A stretch of DNA of 47,932 bases from Octopus sinensis. Lineage: Eukaryota. Positions within the stretch are counted from its first letter, which is position 1. Each line of letters starts with the position of its first letter. This document shows positions 1,929-46,716 of this stretch, in pieces. Both the position numbers and the translations under genes were made by a program. The stretch is from the NCBI RefSeq assembly GCF_006345805.1, contig NW_021834480.1, positions 1 to 47,932 on the forward strand. The letters run 5' to 3'. The notes under the pieces are model-generated. The model had not been told where the DNA came from. It saw nothing but the letters and a program-made list of their open reading frames with translations, and did no database searches.

Positions 1929-1971
1929 TGTCAAAGTCCTTTCATTGCTATTCACGACCTCATCAATGACA
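1929..1971 (-). ncRNA. Decayed minimal hammerhead motif, family B
   Basis: TGTCA-TTGATGA-G-GTCGT[GAATA]GCAAT-GAAA-GGAC-TT-TGACA; flank resembles 32218-32350. Confidence 0.55.
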
Positions 1972-3514
1972 TACCCTCTCTCCTCCAGGTTCAAATCTGT
2001 CTCATTTTTTTTCTTACAAGAAGTCTGGTGTTAAAAATGGTAACAACATGGTTATATGTTCAAACCTGGCTGTAGTCAGTGTGCTATATTATCTGAGCAA
2101 GCAGATAATTATTTCCTCCTATTTGCTTGATTGGCAAAAGTAAAACTGGTTCTCTTTCTACTTAAGTAGTTTGTGGTATTTATTGACCTTTCAGTCGTAA
2201 ACACAAAAACAATTCATCTAACATAGTATCATGACCATACATGCAAACAAAACTGGACGTTGAGCAGTAATGTGGCACGTAAAAAGCACCAACTGATCGT
2301 GGCCGTTGCCAGCCTCCCCTGGACCCTGTGCTGGTGGCACGTAAAAAGCACCCACTTTACTCATGGAGTGGTTGGTGTTAGGAAGGGCATCCAGCTGTAG
2401 AAACATTGCCAGATCAGATTGGAGCCTGGTGCAGCCTCATGACTTCCCAGATCCCGGTCGAACCATCCAACCCATGCTAGCATGGAAAATGGACGTTAAA
2501 CGATGATGATGATTATAAAACCAGCCATTGTTGTCATTATCAGTATCATCATTGTTGTTGTCATCATCATCATCATCATCATCACCATTCTTATCATCTT
2601 TGTTGCCTTTCTAAATATCATATTGTCATCACATTGTCACAATGTGTCATGTCATCATTTCGAAGCTATCCAACCTAGCTCTGCCTTAATCCACTCTTTC
2701 CTCTTCTTCTCATCTTCCTCGGATGCGTCACTCCTTCACGTCATACGAAACATTTTAACGACTTTGGTCTTAAGCAGCTGCTAAGTTGATAGTGTTTAGC
2801 TCCAGTACAGTCTTCATTGCACAGATTTTCGATCAAAGACAGGCTGGCCATGCCAACCATGGCATGATGTGATTTGAGGGAGATGCGGTTACTATTGCTA
2901 GCAGATTGAGAGATTACATAGAAGTCCCTTCATCGGCATACAAGCCACTCATTCAGTTCAGATTGCTGTTGTCATAGGGATGGGAAACTGAAGATATAAG
3001 TACTGACTCTCCTTAAGTGCCCAGTCTGGTTGGCGTCTCTACTGCAGGTCACCAATACAGGATTTACCTTAAATGCCATGTCATGTTAACGTTGCTATAG
3101 ATACGGCAACTGAAGATGTAGGTCATCAGTAAAGATTTCATGCCGGCCAGTCCCAGTTTCTGCTCTGTTCTACAAGTTCTTGGTATTTGGCAAGCTTCCT
3201 AGATTACGGGTTAATTCTGAGTCATTATTCAGTTAATTCAGTGTCGTCAATTCATTATAGGCGAGTTTGCTGCCATCAATTCACCATGAAGAAAGTTCAC
3301 CTTGAGGAAAGTTACTGAGAAAATATATCTTTGGTATCTCAGCATTGATAGTTAAAAATTATTTTATTCGGGAAAAAATGGTGAATTGATGTCAGTGAAC
3401 TTTCTCTGTAGTGAACTGATGATGGTGAAATTACTGGACAAGAGCTTCTTTCCAAGAGCCTCCTCCATATGTTCTTCCCAGGGCTTCCCAGTAAAGTTTT
3501 TAGTAGGAAATGTA

Positions 3515-3997
3515 CTGTAAATCCTCGAGTATAACCCACCCTTGAATATAATATGTAGGGGATTTTCAGAGGGCTGTATCTCTGAAAAACCTAAACCTTG
3601 TGTATAATACGCACCCCTTCTCTAACTTGAGCCAAGGAGATCTATATAACGTCCTTGGTTTGTAAAGATGTATACGGTAACGTCCTTTATTATTATTGTA
3701 TATATAACATAATGCAAACGTGTAGCTTTTTTGTGCATTTTGTTTGCAGAAAATAAAGAAATAACAGTAATAACGTTTAATAAATGCTGCTTACTGCAAG
3801 TTATGGATGATTCTTTTTTTACTTCATTGCTTTCAGGCTTAGCTTAAGGTATTTTCGTGCCCGACATCAGAAAATGCGTCTGAATAAACATTGCCAGACA
3901 GCAAATAGAGACTTGGACATTGCTTAAAAATAATTTTTATTTTTAACCTTTAAATTTTTTTGGGGGGGGGATGCGGATTATACTCAGGGATTTACGG
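3515..3997. mobile_element. Tc/pogo-like MITE
   Basis: TA TSD; TIR CTGTAAATCCTCGAGTATAA / TTATACTCAGGGATTTACGG. Confidence 0.75.
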
Positions 3998-4287
3998 TAT
4001 GCAAAATAAAGGATATTAAACGCCATGATCCTCACATCAAGGAACTTCAATATATCGTGTCCTTTACTTTCCCTTGACTATAAGGTATGATTTGAGGGAG
4101 ATTGGATTCTGTTTCTACAGCTACACAGAGTCCTTCCCCATTCCGGTGTTGGCAGAAATGATAAGTTGTTGACGGTGAGTTTTATATTGCATTGGGTTGT
4201 TAAAAGGATTTCTGTTAAATCATCGCAGCTCCCTGCCCCGCCCCGTCCTGCCCCGTCCCACTAATAACAACAGGAATATTTTATACT

Positions 4288-4511
4288 TCTTATTTCTTTA
4301 TTGCCCACAAGGGGCTAAACATAGAGAGGACAGACAAAGGGATTGAGTTGATTACATCGACCCCAGTGCGTAACTGGTACTTAATTTTTCGACCCCGAAA
4401 GGATGAAAGGCAAAGTCGACCTCGGTGGAATTTGAACTCAGAACGTAACGGCAGGCGAAATACGGCTACACATTTCGCCCGGCGTGCTAACAGTTCTGCC
4501 AGCTCCTCACC
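4288..4511 (-). mobile_element. Monomeric SINE of the same family (others near 701, 930, 1270, 18880, 26817, 30615, 32925, 33176, 33620, 37487, 39830, 44741, 45930)
   Basis: GGCGGYGAGCTGGCAGAA head, GAGTTCAAATTCC B-box, core GGTCGATAAATTAAGTACCAG; TSD TTATACTTCTT. Confidence 0.9.
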
Positions 4512-4821
4512 TTATACTTCTTGATATATCCATTCAACCGCAGAAAGCTTTGTCCTTCAGTAACATACTGGTGTTCAATCAGTTATATTCTGTGACTGTA
4601 GCAATATCAATATTGGAAATATTAAAAATTCGATTAAGCAAGGGAGATAACTCCAATAAGATTATCGAAATCTATTTATTTATTTTACATCTGGCCCCAA
4701 ATGTATTGCCTTTACCTTTTATCTTGTCTCAGTCAATTGACTGCAGCCATGCTGGAGCACTGCCTTGGAGGGTTTTAGTCGAACAAGTCGACCCCAGGAT
4801 TTATTCTTTGTAAGTCTAGTA

Positions 4822-5122
4822 CAGTGGTTCCCAAACTTTTTTTGACACCCAGACCACATTCCCAGCGCCCTCGCCCCCAACTGACCCTCACAAACATAGA
4901 CCCTTTTCTGAAACAAATTCAAAGCAACTGTATTTCACAAATAAAACTTAACCTAACGAACCCATAATTTTGTTGCTTTTACATGAATCACTACCCCCAT
5001 TATTGCTCCCACTTCTTACATGAATCGCTCCCCTATTATCACCCCACTTTCCTTCAATGTCCCTTTGGAACTTTTCACCCCACCCCCAGTTGGGGCAATA
5101 CCGCCCACTTTGGGAACCACTG
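4822..5122. mobile_element. hAT (Charlie-like) MITE inserted into a SINE
   Basis: TIR CAGTGGTTCCCAAA / TTTGGGAACCACTG interrupting SINE sequence. Confidence 0.75.
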
Positions 5123-5791
5123 ACTTATTCCATCGACCTCTTTTGCCGAACCACTAGGTTACGGAGACATAAACACACCAATACCAGTTGAGATGTGGTG
5201 GTGGGGGACAAACACAGACACAAAAGACACACACAAATACATGATGGGCTTCTTTCAGTTTCCATCAAATAAGTACCAGTTACGCACAGGGGTCGATGTA
5301 ATCGACTTAATCTGTTTGTCTGTCCTTGTTTTCCCTCTCTGAGTTTAGCCCCTTGAGGGCAATAAAGAAATAGGTAATGCTATTGTAAGCAAATAGGGAT
5401 ACAAAAGAGTATTTGAAGCCACCAACAATCTGTAAATATATTGGATTTAAGTATTATTTCAAAGAGAAAGGTCTGAGGCCTGCTGAGAACACTTTGTGGA
5501 TCCATTTGTAGGTCAGAGCCCACCTGTTGCCAACACTTGACATTGACAAGCAACGTTTTAAGTGGAGTCTAGTACAAAGCCGTAATGGCTATTTCCTCTC
5601 ACAGTGAATGCGCACACGCACACACACATTCCTTGCCTCTATTCTGCCAGTTTTTATTGCTAAGTGGAGGCAGTAGGAAATGCTAAGAGAAATCTCAATT
5701 CATCACATACTCAAGAAACCATTTCCATCTGCAAAACTAACAGATGCACTTTTTTTCTTTTTACTTCTGTTTTTTTTTTTTTTTTTGACAG

Positions 5792-5878
5792 ATCTCAATT
5801 CATATTTGTCCCTTCTACACTCTGTCTTCACCTGGGATGAAGCAGCAGATGTCATCATTGCTAAATGCAGAAAAGCAG
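5792..5878 (+). CDS. Probable internal coding exon of the same unidentified gene
   Basis: Long poly-T tract plus GACAG acceptor; 87-nt open phase-1 exon (D)LNSYLSLLHSVFTWDEAADVIIAKCRKA; donor CAG|GTGTGC; non-repetitive sequence. Confidence 0.55.
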
Positions 5879-6517
5879 GTGTGCTGGTACATTTGTTCAA
5901 GCTTTCAAAGAATTGCTTAGTGGCATCTCTTCCAGTGCTTTACATTCTGAGTTCAAATCTTGTTGAGGTTAACTTTGCTTTACATCCTTTTGGAATCAAT
6001 AAACTTTGTACCGGGCAAGTATTGGTCCCCTCTTCTCAAATCTGCTGACCTTGTGCCAAAATTTGAAACTGTCTTTACAAGGTGGAGGAGAAGATGATTC
6101 AAATCTGGTAATGAATTTGACAAGAAATGTTTTATTTGGGTGTAAGCAGGCACCACCTATGGCCTTTTATTTTTAAAGGTTATCTGAGGCTAGTTGGAGG
6201 AAAGGAGGAAGTTATTCTTAAACTGGAAACCTAACCTGAATATGTCCAGTACATCAGGCATCTCCAACTACTCGGTCGCATAGAATGAGTAAATTTATAA
6301 ATTTTATTTCTGTTTTATCAACTGTTGTAGTCTGCAGGGTGTCTTTGCATAATATATTTATATTATATATGTAATAATTAAATCATATATTATGCTCTTT
6401 ATTGAGTTTTATTATGTATGTGATTCCTTGGTCCATGGTACAAAAAGGTCGGGCACTGCTGTAATGGAGTGAACTCAACTTATGTTACCCAAGGACTGAA
6501 TGGTGGTCAGTCTAGAC

Positions 6518-6823
6518 CAGTGGGTATCAACATTTTTAATATCCAGGCTAAATCCAAAACCTGGATTTTTTAAGGGAGCTGCACCCAAAAACAGTAAAAT
6601 GTATGTCAATTAAAGAAAAATTTATTATATTTCCCATACGGGACTGTCACGTTAAATTGACAGTATACAACCATTCTATCGCTCCACCATCGTACATATC
6701 TCTATGAAATATTTAGAAATTTAATATTTCTGATTATTATATTTATAGAAAGAAAACTGTCAAGGGCTGCCAGAAGGATGCTTGAGAGATGGATGTGGCC
6801 CTTGGAGCTGCAGATAACCACTG
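6518..6823. mobile_element. hAT (Charlie-like) MITE
   Basis: TIR CAGTGGGTATC / GATAACCACTG; TSD GTCTAGAC/GCCTAGAC fits the Charlie NTCTAGAN target. Confidence 0.7.
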
Positions 6824-7190
6824 GCCTAGACATTACTGAATAGTGTCTGTATTTCCACTTTCAGTTTATCACAATATGCAGGCCATATCCAAAACTTGGA
6901 CATTGGAGGGAGAGGGGGCTGCCCCAAAATGTAAAACACAAATAGATTAAAGAAAAATTTATAGAGTGAAGAATATCAAGGGCTGCCAGAACGATGCCTG
7001 GTGATTGCATGCAGCCCTGGGAGCTGCAAATGAGAACTGCTGGCCCAGGCATTACTGAACAAGGATTATATTTCCACTTTAAACTGAAAGAATGCCTCTT
7101 ACAAAGACAACGCAATTTCAAAATTCCATGTTTTATTAGGATAGGTTTCCCGCTGTCACCAGATTTGTCTATTACATCACTCTTTTTCAG

Positions 7191-7360
7191 TTAGACATTA
7201 AAAATCTAAAAATTAACCTTGGCCACTAATTAGGACATCAGGTTTACAGAAGAATCTCTTGTTTCACTTTCATTTGGAATTCTGAGACTACAATTAATAA
7301 AAAGGAAACCTCGTGCTGTATGGGGATGGTCTATTAATAAAGTCTTTTTGTTGTTTTCAC
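7191..7360 (+). other. Probable terminal exon and 3'UTR of the unidentified plus-strand gene
   Basis: Acceptor ctctttttcag at 7190; phase-1 continuation (V)RH* with stop at 7199-7201; AATAAA at 7296 and 7336, followed by a GT/T-rich element. Confidence 0.4.
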
Positions 7361-7430
7361 AAAAAGCCATATCACCGGAATTTTGTGACAACACAAATTA
7401 TGAGAAATATTCTAGAAATAACTTCCTATA

Positions 7431-8220
7431 AGGCGGTGAGCTGGCAGAAACGTTAGCACACCGGGTGAAATGCGTAGCAGTATTTCGTCTGCCGTTACGT
7501 TCTGAGTTCAAATTCCGCCGAGGTCGACTTTGCTTTTCATCCTTTCAGGGCTGATAAATTAAGTACCAGTTATGCACTGGGGTTGATCTAATCGACTTAA
7601 TCCCTTTGTCTGTCCTTGTTTGTCCTCTCTGTGTTTAGCCCCTTGTGGGTAATAAAGAAATAGGTATTGCGTCTGCCGTCGCATTCTGTGTTCAAATTCC
7701 GCCAAGGTCGACTTTGCCTTTCATCCTTTCAGGGTTGATAAATTAAGTACCAGTTATGCACTGGGGTCGATCTAATCGACTTAATCCGTTTATCTATCCT
7801 TGTTTGTCCCCTCTATGTTTAGCCCCTTGTGGGTAATAAAGAAACAGGTATTTCGTCTGCTGTTACATTCTGAGTTCAAATTCCACCGAGGTCGACTTTG
7901 CCTTCCATCCTTTCAGGGTCGATAAATTAAGTACCAGTTACGCACTGGGGTCGATGTAATCAACTTAATCCGTTTGTCTGTCCTTGTTTGTCCCCTCTAT
8001 GTTTAGCCCCCTGTGGGTAATAAAGAAACAGGTATTTCGTCTGCTGTTACGTTCTGAGTTCAAATTCCACCGAGGTCGACTTTGCCTTTCATTCTTTCAG
8101 GGTCGATAAATTAAGTACCAGTTATGCATTGGGGTCGATCTAATCAACTTAATCCCTTTGTCTGTCCTTGTTCGTCCCCTTTATGTTTAGCCCCTTATGG
8201 GCAATAAATAAATAAGAAAT
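7431..8220 (+). mobile_element. Tetrameric tRNA-derived SINE (Meta/Sauria-like core), 184-bp period
   Basis: One head plus units starting at 7479, 7663, 7847 and 8031; flanked by AGAAATAAC(T/A)TCCTAT duplication. Confidence 0.9.
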
Positions 8221-8684
8221 AACATCCTATGCAGCACCTTAAAGATGTTCATTCAAACAACGAAATATACTGTGAAATGAATAAGCACTATTTATGAAAA
8301 TGCTGGTATGTGTGCGCATCCCTGGTAATTTTGTTTTTAAATAGCAAAACAGTAGAAAAACGTAGATTGCAAAGCTTAATTCAATAATGAAGAAATGACA
8401 GGTGTTATAGAACATAACTGATAACCCAGTCACCTCGCAAATTAGAGATAATGGTTTGGGTCCTGTCTGTGAACCTGGTTCATTCACCGGTCCTAAGGTT
8501 ATGCTGACACTGTCTGTCATTTTATATTGGAATGTTTTTGCAGTTTATCTATAAAAGTACATGGCCATGATATTGAGGTGTCATAGGTGTGTGTGTGTTG
8601 TGTGATCATCATCATCATCATTTTAATATACACTTTTATATGCTCGCATGATCTAGATGAAATTTGTCGAGGGAGATTTTAATA

Positions 8685-9107
8685 TAATAATATAATGAAA
8701 TTATTGTATTCAGTGCTCAGGTGCACCACAACTTGTCAAAAAGTGCATATAAAGCATATGCAGTAATGTACAAATGTCTGGGAAGTGAACAGTGTGAGTC
8801 AGATACATGCTTGCGTGTGTATGGAGGGGAGAAAATCAGGTGTGGTGTTGGCGAATCTTAGAAAGCATGGAAGTTTTGAAGGATGCTGTGCTCCGACAAC
8901 TAACAACTGATGCTGGCAGTTTGTTCCATGCTTCAGCAACTCTCAGCATAAAAAAATGTTTCCGAAAGTAATGGGAGCTGTGCTGTTTTCTGACTTTGTA
9001 AACATGTCCATGGGTGTTAGAAAAGGTGCTCAGAGTTATTGTTTGTAAGATGGTTAATAATTTTATGGGTGTCTGCCAAGTCAGCTGCCAGACGTCGGAG
9101 TTTCAAT
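8685..9107 (-). mobile_element. CR1-type LINE 3' fragment
   Basis: Minus translation LKLRRLAADL...HGHVYKVRKQ...RKHFF..RVAEAWNKLPASVVSCRSTASFK matches the CR1-group ORF2 end; AT-rich tail. Confidence 0.8.
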
Positions 9108-9870: not shown

Positions 9871-10064
9871 CATTTACATTCGATGGATATTTGTCCTCAT
9901 CTTGTTTGTTAATACAACATTTCAGCTGATATACCCTCCAGCGTTCTTCAGGTGTCTTGGGGAAATTTTGAAACTGGGTTCTCATTCCAACAAACAAGAT
10001 GAGGACAAATATCCATCAAATGTAAATAACGTACATAATTGCTCATCTCTTAAATATAGAACTG
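9871..10064 (-). mobile_element. Penelope-like non-autonomous element, family A, with hammerhead motif (9911-9956) and inverted partial duplication
   Basis: Minus copy 9871-9988 followed by its own 3' part on plus (9989-10064). Motif GACAC-CTGAAGA-a-cgctg/cagct-GAAA-TG-TT-GTATT. Confidence 0.75.
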
Positions 10065-18070: not shown

Positions 18071-18240
18071 GTTCTATATTTAAGAGATGAGGAATTGTGT
18101 ACATTATTTACATTTGACGGATATTTGTCCTCATCTTGTTTGTTGTTAACATAACGTTTCAGCTGATATACCCTCCAGCCTTCATCAGGTGTCTTGGGGA
18201 ACTTTCAAACCTGGGTTCTCATTCCTAAGGTATTTTTCGA
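18071..18240 (-). mobile_element. Penelope-like element, family A, hammerhead motif 18148-18193
   Basis: GACAC-CTGATGA-A-GGCTG[GAGGGTATAT]CAGCT-GAAA-CG-TT-ATGTT; same sequence family as 9871, 18735 and 46525. Confidence 0.8.
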
Positions 18241-18734
18241 CGTTATTATTGTTATTGACTGCCTGGAATCAAACTTGGAATCTTGGGGTTAGTAGCCCAC
18301 GCTCATAACCACTACACCGTATGCCCGTGAGCAATTATGGAGTGAATTAGTGTTAGGAGAATTAAGGATAGGAGAATATGAGATTTATAAGTCCGAAAAT
18401 TCAAAAATTCACTCCATAATGACACTCTCTCTTTCTTTCTTTCTCTCACGCGCACGAGAGTGCAAAGTTTGCTTCCCAACCACATGGTTCCGGGTTCGGA
18501 TCCCCGACGTGGCACCTTGGCCAAGTGTATTCTACTGTAGACCCGACCAAAGCTTTGTGAGTGGATTTCCGGAAACGAAAAGAAGCCCATGATATGTAAT
18601 CAAAATCTCGAAGCTACGAGATAATACATGATTAATTCAAAACCATGTGGATAAATAAGCATCACATTTGACAGAGTAATCTGAATGAGAAGAGGTTGAA
18701 TATACCTTGTGGTAAATAATAATAATAACAGCAT

Positions 18735-18860
18735 CAAAAATACCTTAGGAATGAGAATCCAGGTTCGAAATTTCCCTCCCAAGACACCTGATGAAGCTGA
18801 AACGTTGTGTTAACAACAAACAAGATGAGGACAAATCCGTCAATTGTAAATAATGTAAAC
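18735..18860 (+). mobile_element. Penelope-like element, family A, hammerhead with stem II deleted (18783-18811)
   Basis: GACAC-CTGATGA-AGCT-GAAA-CG-TT-GTGTT; opposite orientation to the 18071 copy. Confidence 0.75.
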
Positions 18861-20396: not shown

Positions 20397-20872
20397 TGGT
20401 ATTCAAATCTAAGTAGAGACTTCAAACTTGAAACATTCAAAGCCACAGTCGAACCAGTTCTACTTATATGGCTCAGAAACCTGGATGTTATCAAAGAAGC
20501 TTGAGAGGCGGTTGGATGGAACTTACACTCGCCTCCTTATGAGAGCTCAAAATCTCTCGTGGAAGCGTCATCCAACCAAAGTACAAATATATGGGAAATT
20601 ACCACCTGTATCATCTCTTGTGAAAGGTAGAAGAGTCCAGTTTGCTGGACATTGTTGTAGAGCTGAAAACGAGGTAATTTCTACTCTTCTCCTCTGGAAG
20701 CCATCTGCTCGCGATACCGGAGGGCGCACACTCTCCTACCCTGATGTAATCTCCAGAGATACAGGCATCCAGCAACAGGACCTCCGTAATGCTATGATGG
20801 ACCGTGAAGTCTGGTGTAACATAGTAAATTCCATTGTCTCGACCACGGTCGAACAATGATGATGATGATGAT
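20397..20872 (+). mobile_element. 5'-truncated RTE-clade LINE 3' end with (TGA)n tail
   Basis: FKATVEPVLL/YGSETW...LDGTYTRLLMRAQNLSW...RRVQFAGHC...DREVW matches the RTE ORF C-terminus; one frameshift; stop followed by tgatgatga. Confidence 0.9.
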
Positions 20873-27329: not shown

Positions 27330-27757
27330 AGTGATGTTGGCTGGGATAATCATATTACACTTGTGCTCTGCCCTCTCCCTCTCTTTTACTGGTCCTCTCT
27401 TTACAGCTCCTCTGCCTCCTTAACACCTCATCTTTCTCTTCCTAATGTATATTGCACCACTATCCTCTCCCCAGCTTTTCATATTCACCGAACCCTCTCA
27501 TTCATATAACATAGGGTCATATGAACTCATTTTACTATCATTATCTCACACACACACATTCACACACTCTCTTTCTGTTTCTCTCTCTCTCCCCTTCTAA
27601 GTCTGTCATTTCTCTTTCATGACTTCCCCCAGCCCTGTCCCTTCTTTTACCTTTTCATAAAAATGAATTTGTTCTTCCCATCATACTTTTACTTCACTTA
27701 ACACCTCACCTTCAACTCTCCTCATATCATCACCCTCTCCTTTAGTCTTCCTCTTAA

Positions 27758-28329
27758 CCCTTTCGTTACCAACCCAGCTGAAACCACCTCTGGCTCTGTA
27801 ATACAAATGTCTTGTTTCCATAAGTTTTGAATTAAAACCTTTCACCAAACCTCAGTCACAATTTATGTTCCTAACACTAAGCTTAATGATAACTAAGTTA
27901 TTTTACTAAATTCTTTGTAATATTTAAAGTAATTGAAAGAAACACAGAGCATCTCAAAATAAATACGGTAACAAAAGGGGGTTAAAGTACTGGAAACTCT
28001 TTAACATTACAGGTTACACAGGAGAACTTTTATCAAGCCAGATGTGTTTAACCCTTTTGATACCAACCCAGTTGAAACCAGCTCTGGCTCTCAGTACAAA
28101 TGTCTTGTTTTCATAAATTTTGAATTAAAATCTTTCACCAAACCTCAGTCACAATTTATGTTCCTAACACTAGCTTAATGATAACCAAGTTATTTTACTA
28201 AATTCTTTGTAATATTTAAAATAATTGAAAGAAACACAGAGCATCTCAAAATAAATACGGCAACAAAAGGGGGTTAAAGTACTGGAAACTCTTTAACATT
28301 ACAAGTTACACAGGAGAACTTTTATCAAG
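27758..28329. mobile_element. Two tandem piggyBac-like MITEs (27758-27981, 28052-28273) with duplicated 3' flank
   Basis: TTAA-flanked CCC...GGG termini; the ~52-bp flank AGTACTGGAAACTC...ATCAAG follows both copies. Confidence 0.85.
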
Positions 28330-28407
28330 ACAGTTGTTACGATGTAAGTTGGGTTAAAAACAAAGGCAAAATAACAATGGAAAACAAAGGTTTACACTTT
28401 ATTTTAT

Positions 28408-28447
28408 TATTCAATATTTCGGGTCTAAAAAACCCTTATCAAGAAAA
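28408..28447 (-). ncRNA. Minimal type-I hammerhead ribozyme motif, U3:A8 core variant
   Basis: TTTTC-TTGATAA-GGGT[TTTTTAG]ACCC-GAAA-TA-TT-GAATA; short stem I. Confidence 0.55.
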
Positions 28448-29430
28448 GAAATACTGAAAACTGATATTACCTCCAATCACTGATAAGAGGACATAGAAAG
28501 ATGGGGGTGGGGGTGGGGGAACAGGTAGATGGGAAAAGGAAATTTGCTAATTAGCATCACGAAACATTTGTCTGTTGTTGAGGCAGGGTTTTAGTCTCTT
28601 TTTTTTTAACCAATAAGTTTTGTTTCCTTCGTTTGTAGGAATTGTTATGGGTAAACAAGTTCTTCATTGGATCCAAAAGACGATTTCCCATTTCACTTCC
28701 TCATTTCACCTAGATTATCTTTTTTTTCTTTTTTGTTTACTTGTTCCAGTCATTAGACTGTGGCCATACTGGAGGCACCACCTTACAGAAATTTTAGTGG
28801 GGACATAAACACACCAACACCAGTTATCAAGTGGTGGTGGTGGTGGGGGGAACAAGCATTAACACAAAAATACTCGCACACACACATACATACATGCATG
28901 CATACAATGGGCTTCTTTCAGTTTCCTTCTACCAAATCCACTCACAAGACTTTGATTGACCTGAGGCTATGATAGAAGATACTTGCTCATGATGCCTCGC
29001 AGTGGGACTGAACCTTGAACCATGTGGTTAGGAAGCAAACTTCTTACCACACAGCCATGCCTCTGCCTTATTTTACTTACTTTCCTGATGCAGTTGAGAA
29101 AAGCATGATTGTCACAAAATCACTTTTTATATTCGTTGATAATCTGGAATTTTCTCATTAATTTCCTTGTTTTCATCCATAGGAAAACGGTGATGAAAAA
29201 AATGAGAGAATTACATTGAATTCTGTGATGTATTTAGATCTGTATCTTTTTGTTCTGAGTTCAAATCTTTTCAAGCCACACTTATCTTGTCCTGGATAAG
29301 GGGCCATTAAAATAAATACCCATAACATAATTGTAAAGATGTTTTTTATGAATTATTAATAAAAATAAATTACTGTTGTTCTTGTTGTTGTTGTTTCTGA
29401 GTGAAGTTGTATGTTCAAAACTTGTTTGTC

Positions 29431-30309
29431 TCAGTTTCCTAATATTCTACGAGCAAATGAAGAAGAAACACACTCGGGTCTCGATGTAGCTAATGGTAAA
29501 ATTTCCATTTTGTTGTATTTGATGCTATTTGTGTTCTGTTTAAGAGAGAAACCATTTTGAGTCAAAGACTTTGGAACAGAAGCAGTATCCTTATTCACTG
29601 ATAACGTTTTCAAAGGTTGGTTCCACATACATTTCTGTAAAGTTTTTGGTGAAAAGGAAGCAACTCTTTTAGTGTTTAAAGAATTTCTGCTATCTCTCAT
29701 AGAATTATGGTTGTTTAATTTCGACACCCAGTCCTTGTAGGAACCAAAATTCAAAAGTCTTTGACTTTCAGTGATTTTTTTTTGGTAAATTTTCCCCATT
29801 GTAGTTTTTAAGCGATCTTGGTAAGGCATAAAACCATGAATAGAAGAATAGATGAATGTAGGACTGTCAAGAACTGACTGGTGGAAACGCGACCTGAATG
29901 CTTTGGATTTTGTAATCAATATATCAGAATTGTTTATATTTGTTTTATCTGAATTTGCCTGCAGATGTATCGAAGCCTTGTAATCTTGAATACCATTGTT
30001 CTCAGTAGTGTCACATTTAGATTCAGCCAAAAAAGTTGGTGCTTTTTTGGTAAGCTTCAAATTCGAAATGCTTTTCTCTTGAATCCAAAATTTCTTGTAA
30101 GAATTTGGAGGAATCTGGAGGTTTTCTGTTGAAGACTTACTTAAAGCCACTTGCGAAATATCTAAAAGTAAATTGTTGGTTCTTATCGTATAAAAATGTT
30201 CGTATTTTGTGTCTTTGTAATTTTGCTTTTCAGCTTTATCTTTGCTTCTTAAACCAACCATTTTTCGTGAGAAATTCCTGTTATTTAAAGTAGGTTTCAA
30301 TTCTTTCAT
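29431..30309 (-). CDS. 292-aa orphan ORF, K/S/N/T-rich, no recognised domain
   Basis: About 880 nt open in AT-rich non-repetitive DNA. First ATG at 30309 in ACCATG context, with an in-frame TAA upstream. No RT, endonuclease or transposase motifs seen. Confidence 0.6.
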   Translation of the reverse strand: MKELKPTLNNRNFSRKMVGLRSKDKAEKQNYKDTKYEHFYTIRTNNLLLDISQVALSKSSTENLQIPPNSYKKFWIQEKSISNLKLTKKAPTFLAESKCDTTENNGIQDYKASIHLQANSDKTNINNSDILITKSKAFRSRFHQSVLDSPTFIYSSIHGFMPYQDRLKTTMGKIYQKKITESQRLLNFGSYKDWVSKLNNHNSMRDSRNSLNTKRVASFSPKTLQKCMWNQPLKTLSVNKDTASVPKSLTQNGFSLKQNTNSIKYNKMEILPLATSRPECVSSSFARRILGN

Positions 30310-30470
30310 GGTTTCTATTTCCACAGCAGTAAATCCCTTGGCATTGTCAATTTAATGGACTCAGGTGAGCACAAAAGAGTGATTCAAATTTAGGTTGGAC
30401 AATTTGTTTTTCAAATAAAACTAATTCATGTAGTAGCAGTTGATAGCAAATTAACCAAATTTGAAAGGGT

Positions 30471-32005: not shown

Positions 32006-32307
32006 GATATAAAGTAGGGACCCATAAAAGATGTTGTCTTCGATTGATTAGAAGGACTGAAGGACCCGTGATGTTTGGGGAAGTACAAAGGAGAAATAGA
32101 AAAAGAAAGAAAACATTGAAACAATTGTGGGTGGGGGTGAGATCAACAACAATGACAAAAACAATAATAAGCAGAAACAATGAATAGTATGTTGTATTTT
32201 GGGAGGGTCATACTGCCAATAAATAAAAGCACATGCACTGGTACTGTTTCACTTCAGTTTTATTGCTAATTAAGTACATAATTAATCAATGAATCAATTA
32301 ATTAGTC

Positions 32308-32349
32308 TGACAAAGCCCTTTCATCACAGTTGTGACCCTATCAGTGTCA
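32308..32349 (-). ncRNA. Decayed minimal hammerhead motif, family B
   Basis: TGACA-CTGATAG-G-GTCAC[AACT]GTGAT-GAAA-GGGC-TT-TGTCA. Confidence 0.55.
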
Positions 32350-33125
32350 ACATGTGAAGGGCACGTCTCAGTGGTTAGAGCATAGTGAGTTCAATTCCTG
32401 GACTTGCCATATGTTGTGTTCTTGAGCAAGACACTTTATTTCACAAATTTAGTGGGAGGAGGCTAGTTGATTACATCGACCTCAGTGTTTCATTGATAAT
32501 TATTTCATCAACCTGTATTCTGATGGAAGAAGGAAAATATAGAACTGTGAAAGAAGTTTTTCCTTCAGATGTAAATCCACTGGGGCCTGAAGTGAGTATT
32601 GAACCTAGTGCCCCAGTGGTGAATTATGATGACATAAAATGGTAAGTTGAGATTATTTTAAAGAACTGTTAAAGACGCTTTGTTTGAAATAATTGATATC
32701 ACATAATCATTCTGGAGCGGGGCCAGGGTGACCGTTTCACCTTCATTGTAAAATTTTCATTTTATTCATTTTTCATGCGTTAATTGTCCCCACATGTGTG
32801 TTTGTCCCCTCTATGTCGGCCCCTTCTGGGCAATAAACAATCAACTTATTTCATCAACCTTGAAAGAATGAAGTGCAAAGTCAACCTAGGCAGAATTTGA
32901 ATTGATAACAGTAACAATAAGCTTTTCTACTAAAGGCCTGAAATTTGTGGGGAGGGGCTAGTTGATTATATCGACCCCAGTGTGTAACTGGTACTTATTT
33001 CATCAACCTTGATAGGATGAAAGACCAAGTTGACCTTGATGGAATTTGAACTCAGAACGTAAGGACGAACAAAATGCTGCTAAGCAGTTTGCACGGCTTG
33101 CTAACAATTCTGCCAGCTCGCTGCC

Positions 33126-36465: not shown

Positions 36466-37454
36466 AGAGAGAGAGAGAGAGAGAGTAAGACAGAGGAAAA
36501 AATGCAACTACACACACACACCCATACGCATATGTATATGTGTGTGTATTTAATATTTTTATATGTGTATGGCACACATATATATACACACCATATACAT
36601 ACAAATATATATATACATATATATATATATATAAAGTAGCTTGCTTACCAACCACATGGTTCTGGGTTGGTAAGCATGGAAAATGGGTGATGATGATGAT
36701 GATGATGATGATATATATATATATATATATATATAGGTGTAGGAGTGGCTGTGTGGTAAGTAGCTTGCTTATGAACCACATGGTTCTGGGTTCAGTCCCA
36801 CTCCGTGGCATGTTGGGCAAGTGTCTTCTGCTATAGCCTCAGGCCAACCAAAGCCTTGTGAGTGGATTTGGTAGACGGAAACTGAAAGAAGCCCATAGTA
36901 TATATTTATGTGTGTGTGTATGATTGTGTGTCTGTGTTTGTCCCCCCCCCCACCAACATCGCTTGACAACCGATGCTGGTGTGTTTACATCCCATAACTT
37001 AGCGGTTTGGCAAAAGAGACCGATAGAATAAGTACTAGGCTTACAAAGAATAAGTTCTGGAGTCGATTTGCTCGACTAAAGGCGGTGCTCCAGCATGGAC
37101 AGTCAAATGACTGACAAGTAAAAGAGTAAAATGAGTATATACACATACAGCTATACATACATATATACATACATGCATACACACATACATACATCCATAG
37201 GTATATACTTAACCCCTATATTTGTACAGCAGTAAGGGCCTAGGTGCAAAACAAAGCGGGAAAGAATAGTACTGAAATGCTAAGGATAGAATAAAGTACT
37301 TATTCTATTGAAGCCAAAACAACTTCACAAACTGTTACTCAGAGTTTCACATAACTGCTTGTCAGATGATTCAGGGTCTGAATCATCAGAGCTATTGGAT
37401 GAAGAGTCTTGAGGCACTTTGAGTTTCAATAAAATAATATTATGTAATATGTAC

Positions 37455-38352: not shown

Positions 38353-38751
38353 GAGGAGGCCAGGATAACACCTGCAAGACTCCAGAGAGATTTAAAGAAG
38401 AATGTAGCAATCAAGAAGGTGAATCTCAGTGACCTTTTTGTGTGCACAGTTTGTGACAGACCATGCCTTTCTTTTGCTGGGCTCAAATCTCATTTGAGGA
38501 CCCATGGAAAACGAACCTCCACTAACTACTTTGCCAACATACCTGTGCACACCTTTCAATGCTGTGCATGCTATAAGATCTGCAATTCTAATGGAGGCCT
38601 CAAAAGACATTTTAAGATCCACAAAAATCAGAACTTAATGGCAGCTTTTGGTGATCCAAATCGGTTATGAAATCTAAGTGGGTGTCTATTCAAAACACTG
38701 AGGTGTAGGGACAAGAGGTGGTCAGGCTGTGCATAAGGAGTAGACAACCAC

Positions 38752-38852: not shown

Positions 38853-38885
<33 letters not shown>

Positions 38886-39465
38886 TGGATGGATGGATGG
38901 ATGGATGAATGTATATATATATGTATATATGTATGTATGTATGTATGTATGCATGTATGTATGTATGTATGTATGTATGTATGTATGTATGTATGTATGT
39001 ATGTATGTATGTATGTATGGATGGATGGATGGATGGATGGATGAATGTATATATGTATGTATATATGTATGTATGTATGTATGTATGGATGGATGGATGG
39101 ATAGATGGATGGATGAATGTATATATGTATGTATGCATATATGTATGCATGTATGTATGTATGTATGTATGTATGTATGTATGTATGTATGTATGTAGTA
39201 TGTATGCATGTATGTAAGTATATGTATGTATGTGTGTATTTATGTATGTATGTATGTATGCATGCATGTATGTATATATGCATGTATGCATGCATGCATG
39301 TATGTATATATGCATGTATGTATGTATGTATGTATGTATATATGCATGTATGCATGCATGCATGTATGTATATATGCATGTATGTATGTATGTATGTATG
39401 TATATATGCATGTATGTATGTATGTATGTATGTATGTATGTATGTATGTATGTATGTATGTATGT

Positions 39466-39665
39466 GGAGGACTTAAACGACATGCGAAGGTACATGAAGC
39501 CCAGTTACAACTACAGCCGGCTATTACCAGTAAAGGTTTTAGTGGCCAATTCTGTACAAGACATTGTAGATCTTTAGCTGGGCTAAAAAGTTACATTCGA
39601 TTACAGCACCAATAACAGTTAAGCTTCGTGCAATGGCCATACTCGATAACGAGGGGGCAGCCATA
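39466..39665 (+). mobile_element. Second diverged RTE-like zinc-finger 3' end within (ATGT)n
   Basis: GGLKRHAKVH...FCTRHCRSLAGLKSYIRLQH*; 3' hairpin CTCG-ATAA-CGAG then ATGT tail. Confidence 0.65.
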
Positions 39666-40507
39666 ATGTATGTATGTATGTATGTATGTATGTATGTATG
39701 TATACGTGTATGTATGTGTGTGTGCATGTGTGCATGCATGTGTGTACATGTGCATGGATGTGTGTGTGCATGTATGTATGCATGTGTGTGTGTGCATATG
39801 TGCGTGTATGCATGCATGAGTGTGTATGTATTTTATCTTTACTGCCCACAAGGAGCTAAACATAGAGTGGACAAACAAGGACAGAGAAAGGTATTAAGTC
39901 GATTACATCAACCCCAGTGCATAACTGCTACTTAATTTATCAACCCCCAAGATGATGAAAGGCAAAGTCGACCTCAGAATTTGAACTCAGAACGTAAAGG
40001 CATACGAAATACTGCTGAGCATTTTGCCCGGCGTGCTAATGTTTCTGCCAGCTCACCGCCTTTGCATGAGTGTATATATGTATGTATATGGGATTTTAGC
40101 CTTTTAGCAGCATTCAGATTATACTTTTAAATGTAAAGCTTATTTATTCACATTGTTTTGAATTAATTATGCTTTACCACTTAAGATTTCAATGATGCAA
40201 TTGTCTATTTTTAGAATGACATTGTTAGGTAAGTGCAAGAGGCCAGATCTGATCTGTCTGAACATGAAACAAGTAGAATATTTAATACATGTATATATTA
40301 CTGACGTTCATATCATTAACGTTGACCCTTTAGCATGTAGATTACTCTGTCAAATATAAAGCTTAGTTACGGAGATGTACTTGCATAGCGAGTGACTTGA
40401 TCTGAGATCGTGTGCTGGAACGAAAACAATTGCATTGTGGAAGGTGTTTATAAGCCATTTAAGAAACACACAAAAACCGTTAGATTCACTTCAACACTTA
40501 AATTTAA

Positions 40508-40558
40508 TTTGTCAAAATATTTTCGTCGCTTTGAGACCGCAACTTGTTCACTGACAAA
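40508..40558 (-). ncRNA. Minimal type-I hammerhead ribozyme motif, G3:C8 core variant
   Basis: TTTGTCA-GTGAACA-A-GTTGC[GGTCTCAAA]GCGAC-GAAA-ATAT-TT-TGACAAA: 7-bp stem I, 5-bp stem II, palindromic stem III. Confidence 0.75.
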
Positions 40559-41457
40559 GCTTCGAGCTGCATTGTTTTGAATTAATCCTGCATTATCTCA
40601 TAGAGTCAAGATTTCAATGATGTGGTTATTTATATTTAGAATGGCATTGTAGGGTAGGTGTGAGTGGCTGGATCTGGCTAGTTTCAACCTAAAACAGGTA
40701 GAATACCTGTGTCAGATGTGGCCAGTTTAAATGCCAAATGGTTCAGGCAATTTCCAACAGATTGTGTTTCCAGATGCTTCCTGCAGTTGGAAGGAGACAC
40801 CGGTCACCTTGGGACATTCTTGCCACCAGACGCTGGGTGTCCAGCCTTCAGTGTAAAGATAGGAATACTGGCAAAGGAGCCGTGTCCAACATCGTTCTAC
40901 GCTTCATTGCACAGGTCTCTTCCTTTCCTGCAAAAGTGGGTCACTTCCTGTAACTAATTTGATTTTCAATGATTAAATACTTCCTGTTCTGTTCCTGTGT
41001 TGCTATGATGCTTTGGAGAGAGAGAGAGGGAGAGAGAGAGAGAGAGGGAGAGAGAGAGAGAGGGAGAGAGAGAGAGAGAGAGAGAGGGTGAGGGAGGGGA
41101 GTGGAAGGGAGAGTAATGAAGAAGAGAAGACAGGAAGCTGGAAGACACGCAATTTATTTTAAATATTAATACAAATAGATTTATGGCTCTGCAATTGATG
41201 CGATAGATCGTCTGGCAATGGAAGCGTGGCTGAATTGTACCTAAAGCTTCCGGTTAGAACTCTACCTGTCAACAATACAGGATAATAGCCATTGGCAGCA
41301 TGGACTGAATGGAAGGTGCCCCCGGTCAGACTCTTGTGAGACTAAATGGGAGCTGCTTCTGTCAGAATCCCTGTGCAACTGAGCAATTCAGTCTGGGGTC
41401 CACTCCATTTGGGAAAGGGCCCAGAAAAGTGGCATTAAACTCATCCATGCAATTCTT

Positions 41458-41874
41458 ATTTCTTTATTGCCCACAAGTGGCTACACACAGAAGGGACAAA
41501 CAAGGACAGACAAATGGATTAAGTTAATTATATCAACCCCAGTGTGTAACTGGTACTTATTTAATCGACCCCGAAAGTATTGAAAGGCAAAGTCAACCTC
41601 GGCGGAATTTGAACCCAAAACGTAAAGATAGATGAAATACCTATTTCTTTACTACCCACAAGGAGCTAAACACAGAGAGGACAAACAAGGACAGACAAAC
41701 AGATTAAGTCAATTATATAGACCCCAGTGCATAACTAGTACTTATTTAATCGACCCCGAAAGGATGAAAGGCAAAGTTGACCTCGGCGGAATTGGAACTC
41801 AGAACGTAAAGACAGACGAAATACTACTAAGCATTTCGCCCGGCATGCTAACGTTTCTGCCAGCTCGCCACCTT
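41458..41874 (-). mobile_element. Dimeric SINE of the same family
   Basis: Perfect 17-bp TSD TCATCCATGCAATTCTT at 41441-41457 and 41875-41891. Confidence 0.9.
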
Positions 41875-42934
41875 TCATCCATGCAATTCTTGGACAGGAA
41901 ACTGTACCTGTCAGGACATTTCTCCAAATTATATCTGTAACCCACAAAGAGAAGAGAATAAGTCAATGCAGCAATGAAAAATCTTATTTTTCATTTTACC
42001 CCAATTTTCATGATTAAAAATGAAAAGATTCCTTGATGATCAGCATTTGATGCTAATTTTATGTATAGTAAAATGATGGCCCATTTCATAATTAGGATAA
42101 GTATAGTAAAAACACCCCCTACACTCACGGAGTGGTTGGCATTAGGAAGGCCATCCATCTGTAGAAACACTGCCAAATCAGACTGGAGCCTGGTGCAGCC
42201 TCCATGGCTTACCAGACCCCGGTCGAACCGTCCAACCCATGCTAGCATGGAAAACGGACGTTAAATGATGATGATGATGATGATGATGATAGTCTACATT
42301 TTAGTTGAGAGATTTTGTTCAGGAAAAAAAAAGTGATTGGTTTATCACACTGACAAAGGTTACCAAAATTGTTGTTCTGAAAATATCAACCTTCATATGT
42401 AGAGAAACATCAGGGAGGACAGAAGCTATGCATTAAATTTTAACATCGGCCATCTTTTTGGCAATAGAAAAATAGGACTTAATTCCAACAGAGAAGAAAT
42501 CCATTTTGAGATTTACCTACACAAACCTAATTGTCATGGTTATTAAGTATTGCTAAGATTTGACTAATTAATCAGAGACCTCAGGGTGATCATGATTAAT
42601 TTCAAGTTTGTATCCTAAGTGATAACTGGATGTCTGATGCAAAAGGCATTTGTTATTGATCAATAAAATATTGAGTATTGCAGAACCTGATATAAATTGA
42701 ATCAAGTCTCAACCTCATTCAATAGTTTTCACCAATGACAATAACTTCGTCAAGTTAGAAAAGAATTCTTTCCATATCACTTTTGGTAAATTAACATATG
42801 CACTTGAAACATCCTTAAGCTGAAATACTAGTGTATATAACATTTATAATGTTAATAGAAATGTAGAACAATACTATCTGTAAAAACTGTGGTGTGTTAA
42901 AAACTCAGGGCTCCACTCACAAGAGTGGTGAACC

Positions 42935-42977
42935 ACCAGACACCAGTGTTTCAACCTGATTTGGCCTCCTCAGTGAC
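42935..42977 (-). ncRNA. Type-I hammerhead ribozyme motif, canonical core, GUC site
   Basis: GTCA-CTGAGGA-GGCC[AAATCA]GGTT-GAAA-CAC[TG]GTG-TC-TGGT; stem I weak (wobbles). Confidence 0.6.
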
Positions 42978-45900
42978 AAATACCTTGGATGTTTTGAGCT
43001 AGGCTGAAAAATGCCTGTCCTGCTACACAAATCCCTGAGGAGGGGAACCTGATAGAATGACTACTTACAAATGTAATTTAATGTGGGAAATAAAATGTAT
43101 GGGACCTTCAATGTTAGGGAGTAAAAAAGGTAACTAAAAAGCTGTAAAGAATTATCATTTGTGAATAGTTAATAGCAAAATGCTTGCTATTGTCATTTGT
43201 GTTTGTAGCAGAGAGATAAATAAGAGCCCATTAATATCATAAAGAAGCTGTTTATTCTCTCTTTTAATAAATATTTCATGGAGTAGCGAGAAACAGTGAT
43301 ATTTAGTAGCAATGAATTAGTTATTGTATAGGTAGGGGAAAATATGATGAGGAGTTGCCAACAAGTTGAACACAAGTCAGGCAAAATATTTTAATGCACC
43401 ATCTTGTAAAAATAATAATCAAAGTATTTGAAACTCAGAGAAATGAAGTAAAAGGCTGTTTAAGGTTGGGACATCAGAACGTTTTGAAGACATTTTGAAG
43501 AAAGATATTAGAAGTTGTAAGAGTTAGCACTTCCTTCTCTAAGCCTAGATTCGAAATCGAATCCAAGAATCATCGGTCGTCAAAAACCAATGCATGTATA
43601 GGCGCGAAATTTAAAGATCTCTTTGTTCTGTCAAAAAGTGATTGATCATCTCCCTTTGACCTCCGACCTCAGCCATGTCAGGCGAAGTTCAACTGGACAA
43701 GCGCTGACCTACTTAAGTAGTAACTCTGTTGCAGTATGTCTATCTTTCTAGCTATTTCAAATATTATAAATACAAGGGAAAAACAGAGAAAGAAAGAGAA
43801 TCGCAGCTGACACACCAGCAGACAAGATTTATCTCGCCCCGCATTTTGGAGGCGACAGAGAAATGCCTACAGGCTACTGTTTCGAATGATTCACGCACAC
43901 ACCCACACACACAAACATATTCATCTTTAATATGTGCTCTATACAAGCAATGCGTAGCATTTGCTTACATTTGTATGTAGTGTATTTATAATCCATGTAA
44001 ATAAATCCCTTTTTAATCATGAAACAATTTATGTATTTATTTATACACACACACATCCACTACAAAGTAAAAGATCTTTGCAAATATTCTCATTTATGAA
44101 ATTGCAACACTATCCAAGTCAAATATTAAATTGTTGATTTGCCATATATTTTTATGGACACACACACACACACACACACATACACACACACACACAAGTA
44201 CACACATACATACATACTTATATACATAGATAGTTTGACAGACAGACAGATAAATATCTAAAAGAGCAAACGAATGTAAAGAAAGCAAGGGACCTTGGTA
44301 GAGCCAATGAGATTAAGCAAAAGAAATAGGAGGTGGAGGGGTTTTGTCTGTTTTGAAATTTTAGGCATGTTTCAGCCTCAGTGCATTACAAGTGCTTCGT
44401 GGGTTGAGTGCTGTTACCCTCCAGCCCCTCACAGACTCTCTCCAGTCCTGTAAACAATTTTGTTTCTCACACACACTACATAATCTCTGTGTAGGTAAGT
44501 TGCTGTGACAACAATATACCAGAAACACAGAGAGAAGGAGAAAGAGAGAGAGAGAGAGAGAGAGAGGTAATAAAGAAAAAGAAGAGAAGGAAGAGCAACA
44601 GAAGTGTATAGAGTATATTTTAAATATTCATATCAGGAGGTTGATAGCTTGACCATTGATTGAGCAGAGGACACAGAGTAGACAATAGGTGAGAGAAATA
44701 AAAGCCATACATGAATAAGCAACCCATAACTACATACATTAAGGCGGCGAGGTGGCAGAACCGTTAGCGTAGCTGTATTTCATCTGCCGCTACGTTCTGA
44801 GTTCAAATTCCGCCGAGGTTGACTTTGCCTTCATCCTTTCGGGGTCGATAAATTAAGTACCAGTTACGCACTGGGGTCGATATAATCAACTTAATCCATT
44901 TGTCTGTCCTTGTTTGTCCCCTCTGTGTTTAGCCCCTTGTTGGGGTCGTAAAGAAATACATAACTACATACATACAGACAGACAGACAGATAGACATGTT
45001 TGTTTGTTTGTTCCTTCTCGAGCCATGCCTGGCTCATAAGGGCCAGTTTCCCCGGTTTCCTTGGCATATAGGTTCCCCACCTGGACAGGACGCCGGTCCA
45101 TCGCAGGTGAGCTGCAAGATGCAGGAGGAAAGAGTGAGAGAAAGTTGTGGTGAAAGAATCAACAGAAGTTTCGCCATTACCTTCTGCCGGAGCCGTGTGG
45201 AGCTTAGGTGTTTTGCTCATAAACACACACGCATCGCCTGGTCTGAGATTCGAACCCGCAATCCCTCGACTGTGAGTCCGCTGCTCTAACCACTAGGCCA
45301 TGTGCCTCCACACAGACATGTATGTATAGGTAAAGGTATTGTTATCTTCTCGAGTCATGCTGACTCACAAGGGCCGTTTTCCCCAGTTTCGTGGCATATA
45401 AATTCCCCACTTCCTTCCTGGATGGGATGCCAGTCCATTGCAGGGTAACTCGCTTTTGCCAGCTGAGTGGACTGGAGTAACATGAAATGAAGTGTTTTGC
45501 TCAAGAACGCAATGCAACACCTGGTCCAGGAATCGATACTACAATGTTATGATCATGAGTCCAACACCCTAACCTCTAAGCCATATGCCTCCACATGTAT
45601 GTATATATTTGCATGCATGCATTATCATCATCATCATCATCATCATCGTTACATGTCTGTTTCCCATGCTAGCAGAGTTGGTTGGTTTGGCAAGAGCTGA
45701 TAAGCCAGAGTGACATGCCAAACACCAACGTCAGCTTTGGCGTGGTTTCTACAGCTAGACGCCCTTCCTAACACCAACCACTTTACAGAGGTTACTGGGT
45801 GCTTTTTTGTGGCATTGACACCAGAGAGGTCACCGTGAAACTCAACTCACAAAATAAGAACCACAACTGGGGGTTGTGCAGTACTGACTTTATGTCAGGT

Positions 45901-46524
45901 GATGAAAGGTTAAATTATAATTGAGGGACAGGCGGTGAGCTGGCAGAAACGTCAGCACGCCGGGCGAAATGCGTATCCGTATTTCGTCTGTTGCTATGTT
46001 CTGAGTTCAAATTCCGCTGAGGTCGACTTTGCTTTTCATCCTTTCGGGGTCGATAAATAAAAGTACCAGTTTCGCAATGGGGTCAATGCAATCGACTTAA
46101 TCCCTTTGTCTGTCCTTGTTTGTCCCTTCTTTACTTAGCCCCTTGTGGGTAGTAAAGAAATATATAATTGAGGGAGAGGAACAGGTGTGTTGCTGTGGGG
46201 GAAATACATGGTTACCCCAAATGGAAAAGGGAGTCGATGACAATGCCGATGTGTCAGGGTGTATCCTCAAGTGACAGGGAGGTGAATATAAGAAAAGGGG
46301 TACAGAAGGTTGGATAGGGTGAGTGGGTAAATAAATAATTTGTCAAGGGTGTGAAAGGATAGGAGATGGATTGAGATGGTGAACACAGGTAAATTGGTGG
46401 GGTGGTGGTGGAGATAGGAGTGGATCAGGGAGGTGATACAAGATAGAAGAGGTGATGTTAAGTGTGTGGGGTGATATATATATATATATATATACATACA
46501 CACACTCGCACACACAACAACATC

Positions 46525-46716
46525 ATCGAAAAATACCTTAGGAATGAGAATCCAGGTTCGAAATTTACCCTAAGACACTTGATGAAGGCTGGAGAGTATA
46601 TCAGCCAAAATGTTGTGTTAACAACGAACAAGATGAGGACAAATATCCGTCAAATGTAAATAATGTAAATAACGTAAATAATGTGCATAATTCCTCATCT
46701 CTTAAATATAGAACTG
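46525..46716 (+). mobile_element. Penelope-like element, family A, decayed hammerhead 46574-46619
   Basis: GACAC-TTGATGA-A-GGCTG..CAGCC-AAAA-TG-TT-GTGTT; stems intact, core C3U and G12A. Confidence 0.75.

Follow-up and report, generated by a model that had tools for sequence, protein, structure and literature searches.

Minimal hammerhead ribozymes (HHRs) in the pseudo-long terminal repeats (pLTRs) of metazoan Penelope-like elements (PLEs) are a known arrangement (Cervera and de la Peña, 2014, PMC4209133), and hammerheads at PLE ends are common in animals. In the giant squid genome, 235 Hammerhead_1 hits were reported (PMC6962438), and Penelope-like families were counted in a further study (PMC13282606), from the main text of which the word "ribozyme" is absent. 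The subject of the present analysis is a window of 47,932 nt of Octopus sinensis DNA (NW_021834480.1; contig C10951 of assembly G000, which comprises 2.72 Gb in 13,516 contigs) containing many repeats and microsatellites, for which a preliminary description had listed at least 10 minimal hammerhead motifs from about six repeat families. It was concluded, with a probability of roughly 0.88, that these motifs are mostly decayed minimal type-I hammerheads located at the 3' ends (pLTRs) of PLE insertions, as shown for one family (A) and likely for five others (B–F), and that they would likely be cleaved only as dimers or with the element protein in the source RNAs.

The HHRs of these families share with those of PMC4209133 type I architecture, an extra nucleotide between A9 and G10.1, the G10.1-C11.1 pair, a palindromic helix III and U3-A8 variants. 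Many families per genome, represented mostly by single motifs from truncated PLEs, as well as opposite-strand pairs 100–700 nt apart, are likewise common to both. The copy number, however, looks higher in the octopus, with an estimated ~23,000 copies of family A alone versus 2,000–9,000 per genome, and families with G3-C8 and U3·G8 cores, as well as the tRNA-derived head described below, were not met in the accessible text of that work.

Hammerhead motifs were located at all ten positions of the preliminary description, 8 of them on the minus strand, and each lay inside a dispersed repeat family. The number of families was indeed about six, with the copy at 32308, which has no close relative, joined to family B by a profile match (E = 1e-5). 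The motifs at 18148 and 18783 resemble the two arms of a single inverted insertion, so that the ten motifs correspond to about nine insertions. The features of the window are as follows.

1929..1972 (-): family B minimal HHR motif with a U3·G8 core, stem I UGUCA/UGACA and a decayed stem II, inside a ~200-nt repeat (~1800-1995)
9872..9988 (-): arm of family A lacking the tail, with an HHR motif (9911-9956) whose stems are partly broken
9988..10062 (+): inverted family A partner of the preceding arm, with tail; its 5' end is truncated just 3' of the HHR
18071..18257 (-): part of a family A pLTR with short (AAT)n, open reading frame (ORF) start, HHR motif and tail
18148-18194 (-): HHR motif of this pLTR part; core intact, first stem I pair broken
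18258..18326 (-): putative tRNA-derived head of the family A pLTR with A-box-like and B-box-like motifs; homology extends 22 nt further upstream
18363..18421 (+): 3'-terminal piece of the family A PLE ORF in inverted orientation (end of the GIY-YIG region)
18712..18860 (+): arm of family A lacking the tail, probably the inverted partner of the 18148 arm; its HHR motif (18783-18815) has lost stem II
28405..28450 (-): minimal HHR motif of the low-copy family F; U3-A8 variant with palindrome AAUAUU
32307..32350 (-): HHR motif related to family B but diverged, with a decayed core and stem I GACA/UGUC (GUCA/UGAC in B)
37327..37372 (-): HHR motif of family E with a near-palindromic helix III; the present copy has G8A
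40368..40572 (-): complete family D mini-element of ~205 nt with a fixed 5' end and a PLE-type tail
40508-40558 (-): intact G3-C8 HHR motif of the family D element
42933..42979 (-): family C HHR motif with an intact canonical core and a wobble-rich stem I, inside a ~230-nt repeat (~42800-43030)
46514..46721 (+): solo arm of family A that includes the tail; its HHR motif (46574-46620) has the changes C3U and G12A

The majority sequences of the six families fold as minimal type-I hammerheads, and in all of them the majority letters provide both core boxes (N3UGANN8A and GAAA...UH) and pair positions 3 and 8 (C-G in A, C and E, G-C in D, U-A in F and a U·G wobble in B). Stems I and II are present by majority letters (stem II is weak in B and E), and helix III is formed by the palindromes ACGU in A and AAUAUU in D and F or by near-palindromic sequences in C, E and B. 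The family A majority reads GACAC-CUGAUGA-A-GGCUG...CAGCC-GAAA-CG-UU-GUGUU, and that of family D combines the G3-C8 core with a stem I of 7 bp and the palindrome AAUAUU; stem sequences differ among the six families, while the fold is retained. In the family A alignment (12 rows), 94% of cells pair, versus 18–60% when the structure was slid along the sequence. First-look candidates in the assembly numbered 4913 for A, 470 for B, 53 for C, 1208 for D, 162 for E and 6 for F. Profiles made from natural copies recovered 10 of the 10 window motifs, with 1 weak partial match in the reversed window and none in the reversed 370-kb density sample (37 stretches of 10 kb at fixed positions). Exact intact matches in the assembly amounted to 2,790 for family A (core, stem II and palindrome) and 1,102 for the family D core, with 0 in the controls of both. 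At the level of single copies, a strict descriptor scan found one of the ten motifs with up to one core mismatch (shuffles 0.02–0.17) and three with up to two mismatches (shuffle mean 0.27; none of 60 shuffles reached 3), and a scored scan with 3:8 covariation allowed gave 3 window matches at a score of at least 20, versus 0.57 in shuffles. Single copies are thus weak evidence, and the proof sits at the family level.

It should be noted that several results weigh against this interpretation. At thresholds of 15–17, the scored scan showed no clear excess over shuffles in the window; the comparison with shuffled sequence proposed in the preliminary description separates the motifs from chance at strict and high-score thresholds, but not clearly at low thresholds. 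The Rfam scan for Hammerhead_1, also proposed there, failed to detect a hammerhead both among the 150 of 169 window matches listed, where microsatellite and miRNA matches dominate, and in the family A copy L207. Minimum free energy (MFE) folding yielded the active fold for some window copies only, and MFE and cofold predictions on decayed single copies did not discriminate. In the family consensuses, core and stems are kept and the 3:8 pair covaries across families; compensatory double changes within family A were absent from the 12-row alignment. Finally, a narrow tblastn search with family A proteins revealed no ORF beside families B–F, and an equally narrow search for read-through copies or partners of family D gave 10 matches, five of which were one duplicated locus, with no ORF. 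A PLE origin of families B–F is likely, judging by their tails and inverted arms and, for F, by the motif only.

Family A, to which four of the window motifs belong, is, by its predicted coding content, the pLTR of an autonomous Penelope/Poseidon element with reverse transcriptase (RT) and GIY-YIG domains. Its unit consists of the ORF (RT, GIY-YIG) and its stop, ~30 nt, a 72-nt tRNA-derived head, (AAT)n, an ATG, the hammerhead, the tail and the next ORF. The GIY-YIG C-terminus lies directly upstream of the head and the hammerhead in the loci L007 and L014, and in 28 further ORF-end copies, the homology reaches up to ~1.2 kb into the RT. The RT matches Pfam PF00078 (E = 1.4e-10), and the endonuclease (EN) piece has atlas matches to GIY-YIG clusters (0.96–0.97), with no GIY-YIG called in a Pfam search of this piece. 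The single ORF with both domains was pieced together across several broken copies, none with an intact full ORF. The family A translations contain no Cys-rich linker between RT and EN (CxxxxCxxC is present in the Neptune-type control), which, by the criteria given in the accessible text of PMC8557442, points to Penelope/Poseidon. In L139 and 24 further loci, three of which are near-identical to the L139 locus and two of which overlap mutually, the N-terminus of the ORF follows on from the tail, and the pLTRs of L305 and L311 are partial tandems with an ORF end in front. Thus, a PLE with RT and GIY-YIG sharing its ends with the motifs, which the preliminary description had proposed to look for, was found for family A, from broken copies, but no partner was found for B–F. 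The elements had been described there as non-autonomous; most family A copies are in fact short, but this largest family is the pLTR of an autonomous element.

The 3' ends of family A are bimodal and ~40 nt apart, with 48 of 149 arms ending at 141–150 and 65 at 181–188. Inverted HHR arms within 700 nt were found in 12/28 loci of A, 4/18 of B, 2/18 of C, 2/13 of D, 6/13 of E and 0/4 of F; probable inverted pairs in the window are 9911 with 9988-10062 and 18148 with 18783. An optional tail of 30–60 nt, observed in A and D, and inverted 5'-truncated arms are described as PLE features (PMC8557442, PMC11167929), and the combination of bimodal 3' ends with inverted arms is a PLE signature that, together with the rarity of same-strand partners (1 of 94 loci), excludes tandem retrozymes. 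In L019, L020, L024 and L025, family A arms were joined to another long interspersed nuclear element (LINE) at its 3'-terminal (AAT)n tails, which suggests microsatellite-guided junctions.

The closest counterpart of family A is Poseidon of Anolis (PAc; PMC11167929), in which a single RT and GIY-YIG ORF also starts at the HHR. In L317, an open frame of 390 aa begins with an ATG just before the hammerhead and runs through it, so that, as in Anolis Poseidon, the start codon would be lost on cleavage. Both elements also share two RT start sites, resulting in an optional tail, and AT-rich targets. The family A pLTR differs in beginning with the tRNA-derived head and (AAT)n, where most copies start. 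According to the proposed mechanism, a promoter at the start of the pLTR, likely the A and B boxes of the head read by RNA polymerase III (Pol III), would make a full-length RNA and an RNA of ~330 nt. Nicked AT-rich DNA would then serve the PLE protein for target-primed reverse transcription, begun at either of two sites 3' of the hammerhead, with the result that nearly every insertion would carry a hammerhead. The ribozyme would work weakly, as a dimer or with the protein, and would be dispensable for insertion in vitro, as may be deduced from the accessible parts of PMC11167929 and PMC4209133.

Family D, with its G3-C8 core, is an element of ~205 nt with a fixed 5' end in which no ORF was found. 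Among 29 family D loci picked by their 3' tail (including two duplicates of loci already in the set), 18 start at positions 1–5, 5 at 10–15 and 6 at 60–76, and no sequence further upstream is shared by them. The 3' ends lie at 141–150 in 15 of 61 cases and at 201–207 in 42; the TA targets seen are partly selected, the query having carried a (TA)n flank. Families D and, likely, B appear to be short non-autonomous elements that would be moved in trans by the same route as family A. An RT remnant in one sample stretch led to a young Neptune-type PLE family (L240-L263, e.g., L263 and L253; 97% identity, 1715 candidates), which has open frames of up to 645 aa, ends in (TA)n and carries a minimal hammerhead of its own (U3-A8, palindrome ACCGGU, 2-bp stem II). 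More hammerhead-like families were observed in the samples at L143:1659, L161:5046, L155:5669, L177:3632, L158:2435, L152:5240, L151:7505 and L169:6314.

Individual window copies are often mutated: eight of the ten carry core or stem defects, and only those at 40508 and 42935 were judged intact by eye. The earlier impression that most copies are decayed was borne out by 71 family A arms not chosen by the hammerhead, of which 28 keep the core and 17 both the core and the palindrome. In family A arms, conservation of the non-CpG core columns (0.91) did not exceed that of the non-CpG columns overall (0.935), and the decay of G12 matches that of other CpGs. At N7, a free position, A (38 of 73) and U (33) both occur, a polymorphism that constraint confined to source elements would lead one to expect; the dispersed copies thus appear to be neutral relics. 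Truncation of the 5' end just 3' of the HHR was found in 7/149 arms of A (at 91–104) and 8/61 of D (at 60–76); as evidence of cleavage, it was set aside, since RT stalling or AT microhomology fits equally well. In 7 of 29 inverted pairs of family A, N7 (A/U) is discordant between the two arms of one insertion, and arm pairs share 16 derived changes versus 4.7 in permuted pairs; the discordance may mean that one insertion draws on two RNA templates, or that RT slips recurrently. Of 89 classifiable family A arms, 17 have a deletion of 3 nt where cleavage is predicted, usually in one arm of a pair; it may be either a scar of RT jumping over a cleaved template or slippage in GTTGTGTT.

The density of one motif per 5 kb given in the preliminary description holds in the window, but elsewhere the same six families occur at about one per 25–30 kb; the window density is inflated by ascertainment because the profiles were chosen from it. 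In the 370-kb sample, the six profiles gave 16 matches, including partial arms and related families, of which 5 were full family A hammerheads, corresponding to a Poisson range of 12,000–86,000 copies. A family-blind scan of the same sample gave 20 matches against a background of 6.75, an excess per base close to that of the window, and revealed further families. Exact family A words were counted genome-wide at positions -38..-19 (989), +1..+22 (3,041), +30..+49 (4,938) and past the microsatellite (7,799), so that the counts fall 3–5-fold just upstream of the head. Rough calibrated copy numbers, going from upstream to downstream, were 1,700 (perhaps 3,000; the lower figure is an underestimate, the calibration loci having been chosen by their ORF end), 12,700 and 23,000, which implies that the head forms the start of about ten thousand insertions.

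The head bears A-box-like and B-box-like motifs. It aligns with 20 distinct tRNAs of the assembly above shuffle means (best Arg-TCT, 62 versus a shuffle maximum of 41–43) in a comparison that sampled only some isotypes. A query beginning at about +15 of the head returned 29 loci, 3 of which were dropped as duplicates; among the remaining 26 head-bearing copies, 22 start at -17..+12, 3 reach the ORF and 1 is ambiguous. The start cluster at -5 to -7 lies ~13 nt before the A box, and Pol III transcription is expected to start at about that distance. The 3' end of the short family A copies is identical to that of the family A pLTR. Over 2.6 kb of L139, the sense strand is free of TTTT, versus expectations of 5.8 (base shuffle), 3.5 (dinucleotide shuffle, 5/200) and 2.9 (synonymous shuffle, P = 0.027). 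In 55 kb of aligned family A copies, 16 T4 runs were found, all of them private save one site common to 3 copies, whereas the Neptune control has 8–12 TTTT per ORF. A defined transcript start for family A is therefore well supported, while Pol III as the polymerase is only suggested by these features, and a Pol III-driven Penelope shedding copies similar to short interspersed nuclear elements (SINEs) is plausible.

The strongest competing explanation, to which we give an even chance, is that the 5' end of family A is set by an ordinary internal Pol II promoter in the pLTR, or by an RT stop and snap-back at a small hairpin, the head being an inert captured SINE remnant. An internal, LINE-like promoter lacking a TATA box is known from the Penelope of D. 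virilis (PMC2377424). The 5' end is just as fixed in family D, which lacks a tRNA-derived head and contains a T5 run, the hairpin GCCC-AC-GGGC at the head junction could favour snap-back, and several copies show fold-back extension. Further points against a Pol III promoter are that ARAGORN found no tRNA in 11 family A loci and Rfam made no tRNA call on copy L207, indicating that the head is degenerate; that another LINE-like ORF is also free of TTTT (0 versus 2.3 expected); and that depth has no step at the head in three RNA raw-read runs, recorded under another organism label, and one contig run, mapped at 85% likeness. The likeness of the head to tRNAs above shuffles, its A- and B-box-like motifs, the position of the -5 to -7 starts and the lack of any fixed TTTT argue against an inert remnant. 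Family A sequence does occur in RNA-seq reads, with both mate orientations equal, but the reads, being drawn from thousands of copies, are uninformative as to the mode of expression; no start or end pile-up was seen at the head or cleavage site, and no pLTR splice joint among the matches listed. A more extensive version of the Pol III interpretation can be put forward only tentatively, and with more doubt than confidence: family A would be a Penelope with a captured tRNA-derived Pol III promoter, its 2.9-kb coding unit would be kept TTTT-free for Pol III, solo pLTRs would give rise, from the same promoter, to a tRNA SINE (~10,000 copies) that carries a hammerhead and is mobilised by Penelope, translation of an uncapped RNA would be gated or enabled by the hammerhead at the ORF start, and the recurrent 3-nt deletion would be a scar of cleavage in vivo.

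The Sm-alpha and Sj-alpha elements of Schistosoma (PMC6765202) also combine, within one short repeat, a promoter of the Pol III type with a hammerhead downstream of it; their tandem units are freed by cleavage and single copies lose the promoter, whereas in family A dispersed copies retain the head at their 5' end, and the head belongs to an autonomous PLE. With tRNA-derived SINEs (SINE definition in PMC7245038), family A shares the tRNA-derived 5' head and a 3' end common with an autonomous partner. Here, however, the partner is a PLE, the head is also present in the autonomous element, and the insertions have the tails and inverted arms of PLEs. The papers searched revealed neither a tRNA-headed PLE nor hammerheads of these families, although supplements or Repbase/Dfam may hold a description; the tRNA-headed pLTR with its mass of head-starting copies is a variant not found in this literature.

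Retrozymes had been named together with PLEs as possible carriers of the motifs, and the PLE part of this proposal is the one that agrees with the observed ends. That the repeats are non-LTR (long terminal repeat) retrozymes, i.e., tandem units of 170–400 nt processed into circular RNAs, is very improbable. Such elements occur in molluscs (PMC7229834), have been proposed to be PLE derivatives (10.64898/2026.07.22.740005), and resemble the present families as short, non-coding, probably PLE-derived repeats with type-I HHRs. However, the octopus repeats are not tandem, carry minimal rather than canonical HHRs, and would have their ends set by a promoter and RT start sites, not by cleavage. Copies begin upstream of the HHR rather than at the cleavage site, and no tandem array over an HHR was found save a weak 23-nt, 1.9-copy match at 37324-37366. 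With a same-strand partner within 700 nt in 1 of 94 loci, head-to-tail tandem units are practically absent, and this explanation is largely refuted. Exaptation of the hammerheads by the host as regulators of surrounding transcripts is just as improbable: family A sequence occurs in RNA-seq reads and an intact core in thousands of copies, but the core decays at the background rate, eight of the ten window copies are defective in core or stems, and the exact intact family A matches are spread evenly over both strands of the assembly (1393 forward and 1397 reverse; strand not taken relative to host genes). Chance matches of a relaxed motif in AT-rich DNA, with which the low-threshold scans alone agree, are a negligible explanation, refuted by profile recovery, majority-letter folds, family-level conservation, pLTR position and thousands of exact intact copies of A and D versus 0 in controls.

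Among the other features of the window, an open frame of 306 aa at 29434-30351 (-) had no Pfam match and weak atlas matches (0.84), and is possibly a host exon. The frame at 20413-20859 (+) likewise had no Pfam match; together with those at 38375-38670 and 39470-39615 (+), it resembles the 3' ends of LINE ORFs (RTE-like; C2H2-like cysteine motifs). Tandem arrays were found at 7480-8212 (184 nt ×4, a SINE-like repeat) and 27754-28337 (292 nt ×2). A second copy of the whole window is apparent at C22:9.357-9.405 Mb (six probes at 100% and one at 98%) and is probably a redundant haplotig.

If true, a PLE that has a tRNA-derived promoter region and sheds SINE-like copies would bring a third class of retroelements into the scope of SINE biology, and the Pol III reading, if true, would raise the question of how a Pol III transcript could encode a protein of the 800-aa class. 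Meanwhile, the genome offers a natural series of 3:8 cores (C-G, G-C, U-A and U·G), with thousands of intact copies and a young Neptune family, for probing the role of PLE hammerheads in vivo.

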